IMG/VR virus record: IMGVR_UViG_2574180227_000017
Length of the DNA: 12,061 nucleotides
Source: a virus
Lineage: Duplodnaviria > Heunggongvirae > Uroviricota > Caudoviricetes
Reading direction: 5' to 3' (one strand)
Both the position numbers and the translations under genes were made by a program. This document shows, in pieces, positions 4,097 to 12,061 of this stretch. The notes under the pieces are model-generated. The model had not been told where the DNA came from and did not search any database. It worked only from the letters and a program-made list of their open reading frames with translations. Position 1 is the first letter of the stretch; each line of letters starts with the position of its first letter.

Positions 4097-4396
4097 ATGA
4101 AACTTAAATATTCTGGCTTAACTGCCAGTGGCAACACTCACCCTAAATTTACGCGCGGTGATATTTACCGCGACCAGTACGGCGGCACGGTAATGATTAA
4201 GGGCGTGGCGGGACGGTGCGTAACTTACCGCCGTGAAGGTTACGAATATGATTGCGTGATGCCTGTTTATCAGTTCCGGCGTGATTTTTCTCTGGTACAG
4301 ACCGCGCCGCATAACGTGCCCACCAGCAGGGAGAAAGCACGCGCCAATATTCAGGAAATAAAAAAGATGCTTAACGTATTCAGGGGTAAAAAATGA
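4097..4396 (+). CDS. hypothetical protein (99 aa), translationally coupled to the primase gene
   Basis: SD GGAGAA upstream. Stop overlaps the primase ATG (ATGA at 4393-4396). Confidence 0.55.
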   Translation: MKLKYSGLTASGNTHPKFTRGDIYRDQYGGTVMIKGVAGRCVTYRREGYEYDCVMPVYQFRRDFSLVQTAPHNVPTSREKARANIQEIKKMLNVFRGKK

Positions 4397-6141
4397 AACT
4401 GGCACCGAACGTAAAAAAACAGCCACGCGGAATAAAACACAAAGACACAGAGGTAATTATCTTTGCGGGTAGTGATGCCTGGTCACACGCGGAACAATGG
4501 CAGGAGCAGGATGGCCCCGCATCCGGCGATAATGTGCCGCCTGTGTGGCTTGGGCCAAATCAGCTTGCCGAACTTGATGCACTGAAAATTGTTCCGGATG
4601 GAAAAAAACGCGTAAGGCTGTACCAGGCCGGAGAACTGGATTTGGTGGAGACCAAAAAGATTGGTCAGAAGCTGGCGGCGGCAGATATTCAGGACGCAAA
4701 TTTTTACCCCGAAGGAATGCACGTCCAGAAGTGTGAAAACTGGCGGCGCTATCTGAATGCTGAGCGTGAAAATATTGCCGCAGGGCTTACCATGCCGGAG
4801 CAGAAAAATACGCAACTGGCACAAATGGCAGACAGTGAGCGCGCGCAGCTGCTTGCCGAGCGCTTTGATGGCGTTTGTGTGCATCCGGAAAGTGAAATCG
4901 TTCACGTATGGCGCGGCGGGGTATGGTGTCCGGTCAGCACAATGGAACTTAGCCGCGAAATGGTGGCGATCTATTCAGAGCACAGGGCCACTTTCAGCAA
5001 GCGCGTAATCAATAACGCCGTGGAAGCGTTAAAAGTTATTGCCGAACCAATGGGCGAGCCGTCCGGCGATTTGCTGCCGTTTGCCAATGGTGCGCTTGAC
5101 CTGAAAACGGGGGAATTTTCCCCGCACACGCCGGAGAACTGGATCACCACGCACAACGGCATTGAGTACACGCCACCAGCACCAGGGGAGAACATCCGCG
5201 ATAACGCGCCAAACTTTCATAAATGGCTTGAGCACGCAGCCGGAAAAGACCCGCGCAAGATGATGCGTATATGTGCCGCGCTGTACATGATTATGGCGAA
5301 CCGGTACGACTGGCAGATGTTTATTGAGGCCACCGGAGACGGCGGGAGCGGCAAAAGTACATTCACCCACATCGCCAGCCTTTTAGCGGGGAAACAAAAC
5401 ACGGTAAGCGCGGAAATGACATCGCTTGATGATGCTGGTGGGCGTGCGCAGGTTGTCGGGAGTCGTCTTATCGTCCTGGCAGACCAGCCGAAATATACAG
5501 GCGAAGGCACGGGCATCAAGAAAATCACGGGCGGCGACCCCGTGGAAATCAACCCGAAATATGAAAAGCGTTTCACTACGGTAATCAGGGCGGTGGTGCT
5601 GGCGACCAATAACAACCCGATGATATTCACCGAACGGGCCGGAGGCGTGTCACGTCGTCGGGTTATTTTCCGCTTCGACAATATCGTAAGCGAGGCAGAA
5701 AAAGACAGGGAGCTACCGGAAAAGATCGCGGCTGAAATCCCTGTCATTATCCGCCGCTTGCTGGCGAACTTTACCGACCCTGAGAAGGCACGGGCTTTAC
5801 TACTGGAACAGCGTGACGGTGATGAAGCTCTGGCAATAAAGCAACAGACGGATCCGGTTATTGAGTTTTGCCAGTTCCTGAATTTTCTGGAGGAAGCGCG
5901 CGGCCTGATGATGGGTGGCGGTGGCGATTCAGTGAAGTATACGACCAGGAACAGCCTTTACCGCGTCTATCTGGCGTTTATGGCGTACGCAGGCAGGAGC
6001 AAACCGCTAAACGTAAATGACTTTGGCAAGGCTATGAAGCCAGCCGCGAAAGTTTACGGACATGAATATATTACGCGGAAAGTTAAGGGAGTAACGCAGA
6101 CTAACGCAATAACAACAGACGATTGCGACGCGTTTTTATAA
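4393..6141 (+). CDS. replication primase/helicase, P4-alpha-like (D5_N-type domain plus SF3 P-loop NTPase)
   Basis: 582-aa ORF. Walker A GDGGSGKST, Walker B-like LIVLADQ, motif C VVLATNNNP. Followed immediately by an iteron array, as in P4 alpha/ori and PICI pri-rep/ori. Confidence 0.9.
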   Translation: MKLAPNVKKQPRGIKHKDTEVIIFAGSDAWSHAEQWQEQDGPASGDNVPPVWLGPNQLAELDALKIVPDGKKRVRLYQAGELDLVETKKIGQKLAAADIQDANFYPEGMHVQKCENWRRYLNAERENIAAGLTMPEQKNTQLAQMADSERAQLLAERFDGVCVHPESEIVHVWRGGVWCPVSTMELSREMVAIYSEHRATFSKRVINNAVEALKVIAEPMGEPSGDLLPFANGALDLKTGEFSPHTPENWITTHNGIEYTPPAPGENIRDNAPNFHKWLEHAAGKDPRKMMRICAALYMIMANRYDWQMFIEATGDGGSGKSTFTHIASLLAGKQNTVSAEMTSLDDAGGRAQVVGSRLIVLADQPKYTGEGTGIKKITGGDPVEINPKYEKRFTTVIRAVVLATNNNPMIFTERAGGVSRRRVIFRFDNIVSEAEKDRELPEKIAAEIPVIIRRLLANFTDPEKARALLLEQRDGDEALAIKQQTDPVIEFCQFLNFLEEARGLMMGGGGDSVKYTTRNSLYRVYLAFMAYAGRSKPLNVNDFGKAMKPAAKVYGHEYITRKVKGVTQTNAITTDDCDAFL

Positions 6142-9163: not shown

Positions 9164-9577
9164 ATGGCAACGAATGAAAGCATCATGGCGCTACCGCTGG
9201 CGAGTAAATTTAAAGCCGAAGCGCGGGCAATGGCTGACAGAGGGTTATCAACCTACGAGGCCGTATATCAACTCAACAAACTGGAAGAACAGGACAAGCC
9301 GCGCGCTGATGCGATTATGGCGCTTCATGAACATAACGACTATCAGCCGCTGTTACGTGCAATGGCAAACGTGCCATGTATTAGCGTCGATAATGCTCGT
9401 GAAATCCTGAACATGACCATAGAGCAGGAGCGCCCAAAGGTTGCACCAGAGCTTACCGCAGCCTTTGAAAACTTTATGGACATGCACAGCCCGCAAGCCG
9501 TATCAGCTGGCATGGCGTACGATGGCAGAAACCAGGGCGATGACGGCGACATCGATCGCATACTGAAAACCATCTGA
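9164..9577 (+). CDS. hypothetical protein (137 aa), last gene before cos
   Basis: ORF with SD GGGGGAA upstream, followed by a terminator. Similar in size and position to a head-completion or packaging accessory protein, but no motif recognised. Confidence 0.5.
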   Translation: MATNESIMALPLASKFKAEARAMADRGLSTYEAVYQLNKLEEQDKPRADAIMALHEHNDYQPLLRAMANVPCISVDNAREILNMTIEQERPKVAPELTAAFENFMDMHSPQAVSAGMAYDGRNQGDDGDIDRILKTI

Positions 9578-9583
9578 GACAAG

Positions 9584-9607
9584 GCCGGAGAAATCCGGCT
9601 TTTTTTT
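9584..9607 (+). terminator. rho-independent terminator
   Basis: GCCGGA-GAAA-TCCGGC followed by TTTTTTTT. Copy of the terminator at 7143. Confidence 0.7.
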
Positions 9608-9608
9608 A

Positions 9609-9675
9609 CGGGTCCTTTCCGGCATATGGACCCGTTACGGGGCGGCGACCTCGCGGTTTTTCGCTATTTATGAGC
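9609..9675 (+). other. cos site: cosN 12-nt cohesive-end sequence GGGCGGCGACCT at 9640-9651 with lambda-like flanks
   Basis: ACGGGTCCTTTCCGG...GTTACG-GGGCGGCGACCT-CGCGGTTTTTCGCTATTTATGA matches the lambda right-end/left-end junction as recalled (…GTTACG | GGGCGGCGACCT | CGCGGGTTTTCGCTATTTATGA…). Sequence after about 9675 diverges from lambda cosB. Confidence 0.75.
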
Positions 9676-9799
9676 CTTTTCAGGGGGGTGGTGGTGGTTT
9701 TGTTGTTTGCTCTATCTTTATGAATGAAAAGGGAAAGATGCAAACAATACACCAACCTGAAGCAGTAATTAAGTTGGTGTATTAATGAAATCGCACCTG

Positions 9800-10327
9800 A
9801 TGAACAAAAAAAACATGGCGAAAAGCTGCCGTGTAAGTGCGACAGCGTTCGACAAGTGGGGAGTGACTCCCGTTGAACGTAAAGGCCGTGAGGCGTTTTA
9901 TGATGTTGCCAGCGTGATAGACAATAGGGTTAACAATGCAATTAGCCAGCTTACAAACGACAAAGGCGATATTGACGATGATGAACTATTACGAGTCAGG
10001 ATCAGATTACTGACAGCGCAGGCGGAGGCGCAGGAGCTTAAAAACGAGCGCGAACGAGGCGACGTTATTGATACAGGGTTTTGCCTGTACGCGCTTTCAA
10101 AGCTGGCGAGCCAGATTTCTTCAATCATGGACAGCATCCCGCTTACTATGCAAAGGAGCTTTCCACACATTACCCCAGCCATGCTGGATGGGCTTAAAAG
10201 GGAAGTGGTTAAAGCCTGTAATGCCAGTGCCAGAGTTGCCGACAACCTCCCACAGATACTGGCTGATTACTTGAAAGAAACAACCGGAAACGTACCGGAA
10301 AAGTTGCAGCAGAATAAAGATAAGTAA
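9800..10327 (+). CDS. terminase small subunit, lambda Nu1 family (start taken at MNKKN by alignment; ORF track start 9785)
   Basis: Aligns with lambda Nu1 over its full length: NKK start, YD.A.VI, RLLTAQAEAQELKNERERGDVIDTGFCLYALSKLASQISSIMDSIPLTMQRSFP vs RLTRAQADAQELKNARDSAEVVETAFCTFVLSRIAGEIASILDGLPLSVQRRFP. The N-terminal DNA-recognition segment is the most diverged. Confidence 0.8.
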   Translation: MNKKNMAKSCRVSATAFDKWGVTPVERKGREAFYDVASVIDNRVNNAISQLTNDKGDIDDDELLRVRIRLLTAQAEAQELKNERERGDVIDTGFCLYALSKLASQISSIMDSIPLTMQRSFPHITPAMLDGLKREVVKACNASARVADNLPQILADYLKETTGNVPEKLQQNKDK

Positions 10328-10338
10328 CGTAGTACGCT

Positions 10339-10620
10339 ATGACTGAATCCGAAATACTGCGATTAATCCGCCGCGTCTCTGGAATCAGCCAGCAGGCTGA
10401 CGAACAGACCACGCAGCCGGACAGCGTGACAGCCGAAAACTATGCGCGTGTGGTTGCTGAGGTGATGCGCCGTGATGGTATCCAGCTTAATGATGTGGAT
10501 ATGCGCGACATACGGATCCGCGTTCTTGAAATGCTGGCCTACAATCGCCGCGTTGAGATGTATCGGGAGAAAGAAAAAATAACGTACCACTGGAAGAAGC
10601 CGGAGCGGTTGCGGCGGTAA
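10339..10620 (+). CDS. hypothetical protein (93 aa) in the position where lambda has terminase large subunit gpA
   Basis: ORF 11 nt downstream of the Nu1-like stop. Weak resemblance of residues about 5-40 to the gpA N-terminus (LRLIRRVSG / NRLRHFVRAG; VTAENYA / VEWADANYY). Not conclusive. Confidence 0.4.
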   Translation: MTESEILRLIRRVSGISQQADEQTTQPDSVTAENYARVVAEVMRRDGIQLNDVDMRDIRIRVLEMLAYNRRVEMYREKEKITYHWKKPERLRR

Positions 10621-10677
10621 CTGGTTGATATTTTCGGAAACCTCAATTTGAGGAGGCCGGAAGCGTCACCCTTTAGA

Positions 10678-10962
10678 TTCTGAATGGTGATAATCACCAC
10701 GCCCAATCGTGACGGAGAGTGACAGCCAGTGACACGCCGTGACAAAAGACGGTTTAACCGTTAATTAAAAATCGACGGGATTTTGTGTTTTCCGGACGAC
10801 GTAGCCAACGTCATTTTTTAGCGAAAAATTCTGATTAAGGTCATTGTCTGAATGGTCATAATGACCACGCAGACCATCAAGGCAACCATAACGATTTTCG
10901 TTACGGTTGATGTGTGCCTTCGTCCGGCATTCGGACGATATAAGGGATGGTCATAATGACCA
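10678..10962. repeat. three copies of a palindromic motif TGAATGGT(G/C)ATAAT(G/C)ACCAC (10681-10700, 10848-10870, 10945-10964)
   Basis: Near-identical 20-24 bp units read directly. Cores TGGTGATAATCACCA and TGGTCATAATGACCA (x2) are imperfect palindromes about an odd centre. Confidence 0.6.
10709..10743 (+). repeat. four GTGAC pentamers at exact 10-bp spacing (10709, 10719, 10729, 10739)
   Basis: GTGACGGAGA GTGACAGCCA GTGACACGCC GTGACAAAAG. Helically phased direct repeats. Confidence 0.6.
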
Positions 10963-11112
10963 CTCCTACAGAACAGGTAAAACCCACCAGCCTGATTAAC
11001 AGTTAACCGGAAAAAAAATCCGGCATGGGGGGGGAGTGGTTAGCCACGAACAACGAATAAGCTGGACACCGCGCCCCCTCTCACGCAGAGAAAAAATTAC
11101 CGTTTCGTAGTA

Positions 11113-11235
11113 GTTAACATGTTAACTGCCTGATGAAGCGTTGTTGTTGATTTTGTCTTTATGATTCATCTGGTTGCGAGCAAAAAATGTTAACTACCTT
11201 TTTGGTAAAAATGTTAACAGGGCAGAGGTTAACAT
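11113..11235. repeat. cluster of ATGTTAAC / GTTAACAT octamers, including the perfect palindrome GTTAACATGTTAAC (11113-11126)
   Basis: Copies at 11113, 11119, 11187, 11211 and 11228 (inverted). Confidence 0.55.
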
Positions 11236-11250
11236 TAACCTAGCGTAAAT

Positions 11251-11276
11251 CCCGATATGGTGATCACCATATCGGG
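11251..11276. repeat. 26-bp perfect palindrome CCCGATATGGTGATCACCATATCGGG
   Basis: Read directly. Contains a GATC site at its centre and a TGGTGA/TCACCA core related to the motif at 10685. Confidence 0.6.
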
Positions 11277-11487
11277 GAACATCCACCAGCTTAAAAACGA
11301 ATGAGCGAAAAAAAATCCAGGTAGAATCATGGAAGTCGCTAGGGCAATCGCCGTTTAAATTGTGCATTTTTTCAGCAAATTATTTTAGTTATACGTTTGG
11401 TTATACGGTTTAAAAGTTGAATCAATAATATTTATTAAAATCATGCGGTTACATGCTAAATTAAACTACTCTCGTGAATCCCAAGAA

Positions 11488-11514
11488 AACCAACCTATTG
11501 CGGTTGGTTTTTTT
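11488..11514. terminator. hairpin with T-run (terminator-like; plus-strand T-run stronger)
   Basis: AACCAACC-TATTGC-GGTTGGTT followed by TTTTTT. A second hairpin AAACAGACCG...CGGCCTGTTT (11535-11564) directly abuts the stop of the minus-strand gene. Confidence 0.5.
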
Positions 11515-11575
11515 ATATCTGCATTTAATTCGATAAACAGACCGCGACACATCACGGCCTGTTTATTTTCTGTTA

Positions 11576-12061
11576 TCAGAACGTCCAGACCACACCCGCC
11601 TGAGTTGTGCTGCTTTCTTCACGGGAGAAACGGCTGTCGATACCGAGCGTCAGGCCCGTCAATGTTTGCTCAAAGCCAGCTCCCGCATCAGTGTTCACGT
11701 TGTTGCGGCTGTTAATTACCGAACTCCACATCGCCGTATCGTAATTAACGCCTTTTACGCTACCAAGACGCCCACGCACGGTGTCCAGTTCTGCATCAAA
11801 TACCAGCGGTTGTGCTGCCGCCATATTCAGCACATCCGTGGTTGAAGGGGGCATTTGTACGCGATTCTCTGCGAGACTCCAGCTATGGTTGCCATTATCC
11901 AGCAAGGTATATTCATACGTACTGATATCAACAACGCTTCCGGCATTGCCCAACGTAAATGCCGCATCACCGCGCCCTCCTTTAATCGTGGGATCAGTCG
12001 CCGCGCCATAAACCTGTAGCACTCCATTATTGATCGTAGTCTGGTTTACCGCGCCACCCAT
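11576..12061 (-). CDS. 3' portion of an autotransporter-like (type V secretion, Ag43/AIDA-like) gene; ORF runs off the window at its 5' side
   Basis: Passenger-like repeats (GGAVNQTTINNGVLQVYGAATDPTIKGG). YTLLDNGNHSWSLAEN resembles the Ag43 junction motif YSLNRDSDESWYLRSE as recalled. Ends in the aromatic terminus VWTF typical of outer-membrane beta-barrels, but only about 95 aa follow the junction motif, so the beta-domain looks too short. Confidence 0.45.
   Translation of the reverse strand: MGGAVNQTTINNGVLQVYGAATDPTIKGGRGDAAFTLGNAGSVVDISTYEYTLLDNGNHSWSLAENRVQMPPSTTDVLNMAAAQPLVFDAELDTVRGRLGSVKGVNYDTAMWSSVINSRNNVNTDAGAGFEQTLTGLTLGIDSRFSREESSTTQAGVVWTF

Follow-up and report, generated by a model that had tools for sequence, protein, structure and literature searches.

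The window, by which we mean the whole 12,061-bp stretch of DNA that was analysed, is a PICI-type phage satellite inserted at the tRNA-Pro gene proL. In terms of gene content, it carries an integrase (1–1242, assigned by Pfam), a D5-type (D5_N/DUF5906) primase-helicase (4393–6141), an SSB, a DUF4222 protein, a lambda-E-like capsid protein, a lambda-D-like decoration protein, and a Nu1-family protein (9785–10327). The assignment to the PICIs rests on the integrase at one end, the flanking att repeats and the specific insertion site (from comparison of attL, attR, and the empty site), the size of ~11.7 kb, the element's own primase/helicase module, the absence of lysis and tail genes, and a gene order that is that of EcCICFT073.

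The closest complete genome is that of E. coli MS 21-1 (97.4% identity over 10950–11600), where the same island sits between proL and yejO. The corresponding site of K-12 is empty, with proL running directly into the sequence "aaaatcccaag..." and then yejO. Comparison with proL and with this empty site places the attR core, CTCTCGTG, at 11469–11476 on the plus strand, which is the right end of the island; two integrase arm-type repeats, AGTTATACG, lie at 11387–11407 on the same strand and are also present at attL of MS 21-1. Because the empty proL–yejO junction fixes the core at this position, the repeats discussed below lie inside the element, ~190–360 bp to the left of the attR core, and not between the element and the autotransporter-like gene (yejO), where a sequence-only reading of this DNA had put them. 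The empty K-12 site, a comparison that could have spoken against an origin in the element, lacks the repeats, which are therefore element-borne.

At attR itself (11469–11485, compared with positions 770–800 of sequence L003), CTCTCGTG is followed by AATCCCAAG; CCGACCA is missing, and the displaced 3′ end of the tRNA-Pro is damaged. Crossover within the att core at excision would leave proL truncated. A damaged tRNA fragment at attR has been described for PICIs and matches the attR observed here (PMC10111431).

Repeats of other kinds are found further to the left. Four GTGAC repeats with 10–11-bp spacing, in helical phase, occupy 10710–10745 (cGTGACggaga GTGACagcca GTGACacgcc GTGACaaaag) and look like an iteron or a protein-binding array. 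Three 15-bp palindromes of the form TGGT(G/C)ATAAT(C/G)ACCA lie at 10686–10700, 10853–10867, and 10948–10962, the symmetric G-to-C change keeping the dyad; many other PICIs (L199–L201, L282, and L283) have similar palindromes in their right-end tails. The noncoding right-end tails of PICIs also contain ~70–80-bp units in variable number, each comprising CTAACCCGTTGATATTTTC and a short hairpin of variable sequence, with one such unit in the window (10617–10661) and about six in L283 (5700–6500).

The octamer GTTAACAT occurs five times when both strands of the 12,061-bp window are searched, and all five copies lie within 11113–11235. The expected number is 0.56, and none of 200 shuffled sequences gave five, so that the cluster of five GTTAACAT/ATGTTAAC octamers described by the sequence-only reading is real and above chance. 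Boxes 1 and 2 overlap to form a 14-bp palindrome, GTTAACATGTTAAC (11113–11126). Box 3 (11187–11194, minus strand; AAAAAATGTTAAC as read on the plus strand) is invariant between the island and phage types described below, box 4 (11211–11218, minus strand; AAAAATGTTAAC on the plus strand) is defined by its match in the window and by the alignment of island and phage copies, and box 5 (11228–11235, plus strand; GTTAACAT) is inverted with respect to box 4. Although box 5 was absent from the search pattern, the matching sequences that were retrieved contain it. The interval is AT-rich, as had been claimed, with a GC content of 38% compared to 49% for the whole window. A 57-aa open reading frame on the minus strand (11194–11367) overlaps boxes 3–5 and the adjacent 26-bp palindrome and may well not be a gene. 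The octamers and this palindrome had been presented as a single feature; they are distinct and are distributed differently.

The cassette and its phage counterparts

The octamers are part of a cassette of ~225 bp (~11024–11247, plus strand) that is homologous to the HNH–terS gap of phages and is absent from otherwise collinear PICI right ends. Related islands are collinear with the window up to ...CCGGAAAAAAA(T)CC and again from AATCCCGATATGG..., and lack what lies between; the limits of the cassette are drawn from these cassette-free islands, which join the two flanks. The flanks are joined directly in L200 and L283, both capsid-forming PICIs, and in EcCICFT073 (L397), and L201 lacks the cassette except for a retained G-run. 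The content of the cassette is that of cos elements alone, from the G-run to the last box, and includes no phage coding DNA.

The order of these elements is a G-run, the cut site CGCGCCCCCT, an A-tract, the GTTAACATGTTAAC box at +34 to +47, and three more (A)AATGTTAAC boxes. The G-run (G8, 11027–11034, plus strand) sits 27 nt upstream of the cut-site block with the same spacing as in Stx phages; it is similarly placed before the conserved block in most of 64 Salmonella-type relatives, and HK97 also has a G-run upstream of its cos cut. The cut-site block (11062–11106, plus strand; CTGGACACCGCGCCCCCTCTCACGCAGAGAAAAAATTACCGTTTC) comprises the equivalent of cosN and the A-tract (11091–11096), and its phage counterpart includes the physical termini of the Lys8385Vzw genome. 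Within this block, the equivalent of the 10-nt 3′ cohesive end, CGCGCCCCCT (11070–11079, plus strand), is the G variant, shared with YYZ-2008 and the CE10 prophage.

A search of phage records shows that 11062–11236 is ~79% identical to 94 of them, all lambdoid and mostly Stx-converting. On inspection of YYZ-2008 and BP-4795, and also of the CE10 prophage, the match is the noncoding gap between the HNH endonuclease gene and terS, followed by the genes for the large terminase and the head. It is between the HNH endonuclease and small terminase genes that the cos site of HK97-style phages is located. Lys8385Vzw, an Stx1 phage, is a cos phage with 3′ cohesive ends, CGCCCCCCCT, that were mapped with PhageTerm (PMC7946995). 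Its GenBank record (MT225100) ends in ...GGACACCGCCCCCCCT and starts with CTCACGCAGAG, or in longer form CTCACGCAGAGAAAAAATTCCCGTTTCAGGGCAGTTAACATGTTAAC..., and because these positions fall within the block aligned to 11062–11106, the virion ends of Lys8385Vzw lie inside that block. The cohesive end differs by at most one base between the island and phages of the Lys8385Vzw type. The same cut position is seen in an IMG/VR contig of a Salmonella-type relative (L356, 1–72), in which an Illumina adapter is fused to the left end (…GATCT|CTCATTCG…); this junction is an assembly artefact, yet it marks a physical DNA terminus. Among the matches listed, no phage record starts or ends inside the region.

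The homology to mapped virion ends, the intact cohesive end, and the intact cut-site block are thus all found in the island copy, which lies not in an HNH–terS gap but in a noncoding PICI right-end tail. Neither an HNH nor a Terminase_2 match was found among the ten window ORFs scanned, or in the annotation of the closest island; the lack of these neighbors is expected of a satellite copy. The lambda-type cosN, GGGCGGCGACCT, is absent from the octamer–palindrome interval, its sole exact copy in the window being 1.4 kb to the left at 9640–9651. Scanning 9500–11600 with Rfam covariance models gave only a sub-threshold chance match elsewhere (Atu_C9, E = 0.13), promoter and terminator scans of the same segment returned nothing relevant, and no IHF consensus was recognized by eye in the AT-rich spacer.

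Copies of the cassette in complete E. coli genomes fall into two types with nothing between them. The island type (93–99.5% identity) is present in ~50 of 5,426 genomes and the phage type (≤80.5% identity) in ~1,230 of them, which makes candidate helpers common. In about 30 of the 50 genomes with the cassette, a phage-type copy is missing, and these carriers therefore have no co-resident helper. The island-type cassette is found at at least three insertion sites, namely proL/yejO, cspD/clpS (in strain 042), and beside phoQ, and a comparison of the proL and clpS islands gives 23% identity between their integrases. In the 042 island the cassette is present and an exact lambda cosN is missing, so that the cassette may be its sole cos. 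The protease-capsid fusion of the 042 island, for which a match would tie the cassette to a morphogenesis gene, has no significant similarity to the head protein of BP-4795.

Conservation and placement of the boxes

Conservation was measured between the island copy and the phage consensus, the 78 phage copies chosen by terS homology being too alike to be informative among themselves. The cut-site block is identical at 42 of 43 columns (from GGACACC at 11064 to 11106) and the octamers at all 38 of theirs, one alignment gap column being set aside, compared to 57 of the 91 other columns between the block and the last box (63%) and 12 of the 29 nt from the G-run to the block. The contrast is significant (Fisher p = 9e-6), and four segments of the same size placed at random all fall in fully conserved DNA with p ~1.6e-4. 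Across five island-type variants from different insertion sites, 1 of 25 boxes is changed. Some island copies have a cohesive end altered to CGCGCCCACT or an altered box 3; island ends unlike those of the helper might be irrelevant to cutting.

The position of the first box is likewise fixed. GTTAACATGTTAAC lies at +34 to +47 from the left end in Lys8385Vzw and, counted from the predicted left end, in the window, and the same interval is taken up by GTAAACATGTTAAC in the Salmonella phage FSL SP-016 and 64 distinct relatives with small terminases 67–100% identical to that of FSL SP-016. In these Salmonella-type relatives the box overlaps the start of terS (ATG-TTA-ACA), and the leucine codon is TTA in every one. 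The terS gene of the E. coli phages begins ~190 bp farther along, with GTG-CTG-ACA, and yet their box is still at +34 to +47. Because its position holds although terS is ~190 bp away, the first box is kept for a reason at the DNA level that is linked to the cut site. Both groups, E. coli and Salmonella, have small terminases of the Terminase_2 family with a conserved N terminus. From the conservation of the boxes, the fixed position at +34 to +47, and the conserved terminase N termini, we infer that the boxes are putative small-terminase recognition elements.

The two groups also differ in the number of boxes. The Salmonella-type sequences (L198, 1540–1575; L317–L396, upstream of terS) have a single box on the terS start (ATG TTA ACA), whereas the E. 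coli Stx-phage lineage (L004, 3040–3262) has ~190 extra bp with four more boxes between the cut site and terS. This arrangement suggests that the array grew through duplication of a segment comprising the box and the terS start.

The 26-bp palindrome

The palindrome CCCGATATGGTGATCACCATATCGGG (11251–11276), which can be written as CCCGATATGG-TGATCA-CCATATCGGG, is an inverted repeat of the PICI backbone. The perfect symmetry and central GATC attributed to it from the sequence are borne out: the arms are 13 nt long with no spacer, and the longest arm obtained in 300 shuffles is 10 nt. It sits just outside both the cassette and the phage BLAST match, and the phages have only a loose inverted repeat at this place. 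Cassette-free relatives of the island, EcCICFT073 included, have imperfect versions of the palindrome. The variants comprise CCCGATATGTGGATCCCCATATCGGG in L200, ...GGTGATCCCC... in L283, ...GGGGATCACC... in L282, ...GGGAATTCCC... in four IMG/VR contigs, and CCCGTTATGGGGATCCCCATATCG in EcCICFT073, and in 042, L201, and L199 the left arm is degenerate. The best-conserved part is the right arm together with the GGGGAACATCCACCAGCTT that follows it. Most variants have a central GATC, and some lineages have GAATTC or GGATTC instead. The distance from the palindrome to the att core is ~200 bp here compared to ~440 bp in L282. Judged from these sequences, perfect symmetry over 26 bp is peculiar to the lineage of this island.

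These features are most consistent with a site for a dimeric DNA-binding protein of the island or the host, with CCCGATATGG as the putative half-site and a variable 6-bp center, and a hairpin signal acting as RNA or DNA is less likely. The degenerate left arm in several lineages and the lack of the GATC in some weigh on both a strict hairpin and a strictly symmetric operator. The specific proposal that the palindrome is a terminator or mRNA-stabilizing hairpin ending the rightward operon, or else a Dam-controlled switch, is rather doubtful. The predicted hairpin is stable (−18.9 kcal/mol), the palindrome lies downstream of all plus-strand genes, and most variants retain the central GATC; however, neither strand has a U-tract or T-run next to it, the terminator scan does not list it, variant centers such as GGATCA and TGATCC break the symmetry, some lineages replace GATC altogether, and the 042, L201, and L199 types keep the right arm and GGGGAACATCCACCAGCTT with a degenerate left arm. 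We treat the palindrome as neither a part of cos nor an att component, and as not obligatorily Dam-controlled.

Interpretation of the cassette and known packaging systems

We consider it probable, with good confidence, that the octamers are the cosB-like, terminase-recognition half of a complete ~225-bp HK97-style cos that was captured from lambdoid phages, the palindrome being a separate repeat of the backbone. The best reading of the homology is that the donors were phages with an HNH endonuclease, a Terminase_2 small terminase, and a large terminase, many of them Stx-converting. The captured site probably lets HNH-dependent phages package the island.

The main alternative to a working site is a non-functional relic, in which phage DNA left by recombination with a lambdoid prophage is passively carried. 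Such a relic would fit a cassette that is present in so few genomes and missing from many related islands, EcCICFT073 among them, that mostly occurs without a co-resident phage-type copy, and that sits on an island already owning a lambda-type cos. Against a relic, the boxes (38/38) and the cut site (42/43) have been kept although the spacers have diverged to 63% identity, and passive carriage agrees poorly with a cassette that is maintained in islands at at least three insertion sites, that may be the sole cos of the 042 island, and whose boundaries enclose exactly the recognized cos elements with no phage coding DNA. We therefore judge a relic to be unlikely. Still less probable is an operator array through which an HTH regulator of the island or host would control nearby transcription. 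Boxes 4 and 5 do form an inverted pair, and many unrelated bacteria have operator-like tandem pairs of ATGTTAAC-N12-GTTAACAT inverted repeats, but the island has no gene start or promoter-like site beside the octamers, the boxes of the phages immediately follow the mapped genome end within the late operon, and the first box keeps a constant distance from the cut site and not from any promoter. The suggestion of a regulator-binding array thus survives in spirit as a protein-binding array, and the transcriptional regulator does not; the evidence points to the terminase boxes of a cos. When species-representative genomes were searched with the octamer pattern, the matches all came from unrelated taxa and showed operator-like ATGTTAAC inverted repeats; enteric relatives were not among them. 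Many unrelated bacterial and archaeal MAGs (L128–L197) have ATGTTAAC-N12-GTTAACAT as adjacent pairs (~58 bp), often near gene starts, in what looks like a widespread operator type of some DNA-binding family, unrelated to the island locus.

A remnant att region was also proposed from the sequence; that the octamers are such a remnant, or an accessory att region with sites for integrase, excisionase, or IHF, is hardly credible. Their location within 360 bp of attR and the AT-rich, repetitive character of the DNA are typical of att arms, but the true arm repeats (AGTTATACG) and the core lie further to the right, at 11387–11476, and match attL. Moreover, the cassette and palindrome are shared with islands that have a 23%-identical integrase and a different insertion site, the palindrome-to-core distance varies (~200 versus ~440 bp), and the homologous region of the phages adjoins the terminase genes, a long way from their att. 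The further idea of a small non-autonomous repeat element does not hold either: every copy inspected is in a phage HNH–terS gap or at the same place in a PICI right end, and the marks of a MITE-like element (TIRs, target duplication, and dispersed copies) were not found, few of the ~3,000 places having been inspected individually. A captured cos thus remains the reading that we prefer.

The island has a second cos of an unrelated type. An exact lambda-type cosN, GGGCGGCGACCT, lies at 9640–9651 on the plus strand within lambda-like flanks (9620–9680) and is followed by the Nu1-family, small-terminase-like gene at 9785–10327; MS 21-1 has two such sites. The two cos sites of the island point in the same direction and are 1.43 kb apart. 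The N terminus of the Nu1-like protein does not match the lambda Nu1 profile, and the protein matches none of the solved structures in the PDB, RppC included, for which reason we avoid the name Rpp; possible identities are a small terminase specific to the island or an analogue of Rpp. The pair of sites suggests the use of two helper families, and the island is probably packageable by two unrelated terminase systems. We put at about even the chances that both are functional, the lambda-type cos being served by the island's own Nu1-like protein and the HK97/Stx-phage type being cut by HNH-dependent terminases.

For the captured cos, packaging would begin when an HNH-type phage grows in a cell with a replicating island and the phage small terminase attaches to the boxes. 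[quoted passage not shown] Alternatively, the boxes may be bound by the HNH enzyme, IHF, or another factor in place of the small terminase. With phages of ~50–57 kb, the ~11.7-kb island would need multimer packaging or small capsids; multimer packaging has been proposed for EcCICFT073.

If the cassette is functional, it names the helper group as the HNH-dependent lambdoid phages, many with stx, whose type of cos is present in about one-quarter of complete E. coli genomes, and a single island hedges between two packaging systems. If both sites work, one satellite would be mobilized by two unrelated helper families, Shiga-toxin-converting phages included, the spread of such islands would also follow from induction of Stx phages (by antibiotics, for instance), and the five GTTAACAT boxes would define the previously uncharacterized cosB of a large phage group. 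The cassette supplies a testable cos map for Stx phages, consisting of the cut site and five conserved boxes. Satellites that copy a helper signal are already known; for E. coli PICIs, we came across no account of a site of this type, and the cassette sequences were not found in the searchable literature.

In terms of known packaging systems, the cassette is homologous to the cos regions of Lys8385Vzw (MT225100), BP-4795, YYZ-2008, phage 1717, phage 2851, and PPompW prophages, which have the same order of G-run, cut, A-tract, and five boxes. In Lys8385Vzw-type phages the cos lies between the HNH endonuclease gene and terS and is followed by the terS ribosome-binding site, whereas the island copy is an orphan with no HNH, Terminase_2 terS, or terL identified nearby and with spacers that are 63% identical to theirs.

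The HK97 cos has a 10-nt 3′ overhang, its cutting is stimulated by the HNH protein gp74, and the small terminase binds at +15 to +29 beside the cut. It shares with the phage-type cos an HNH gene, a G-run upstream of the cut, and the 10-nt 3′ end, and, with an element for small-terminase recognition a few turns in from the left end and next to an A/T tract, it is laid out alike, although HK97 has one 15-bp site and the cassette five dispersed boxes. Homology to the HK97 cos and small terminase was considered and rejected, there being no sequence similarity (BLASTP E = 1.2 for the small terminase); the resemblance is one of layout only. HK97 is reported to be insensitive to Rpp because of its unrelated small terminase, and HK97-type terminases are stated to be outside the reach of Rpp.

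The R-elements of lambda cosB and the boxes of SPP1 pac are repeated binding sites for a small terminase. Like these, the octamers are short repeats in both orientations over ~120 bp, on the terS side of the cut site and with AT-rich DNA between them; the sequences are unrelated, and the boxes of the cassette are putative binding sites.

P4, SaPIbov5, and EcCICFT073 are satellites that carry the cos of a helper, and cutting of SaPIbov5 by the helper terminase needs the phage HNH enzyme. The island resembles SaPIbov5 and P4 as a satellite that has a helper cos without the matching terminase; it differs from them in hosts and sequences and in having a second, lambda-type cos with a Nu1-like gene alongside. 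The published cos sites of E. coli PICIs are of the lambda type. EcCICFT073, the E. coli PICI prototype, with cos1, cos2, and Rpp, belongs to the same island family and has the same gene order (capsid-like, decoration-like, 93-aa ORF, and right-end tail) and a lambda cosN; in contrast to the island described here, its cos1 and cos2 are both of the lambda type, and the GTTAACAT cassette is wholly absent from it.
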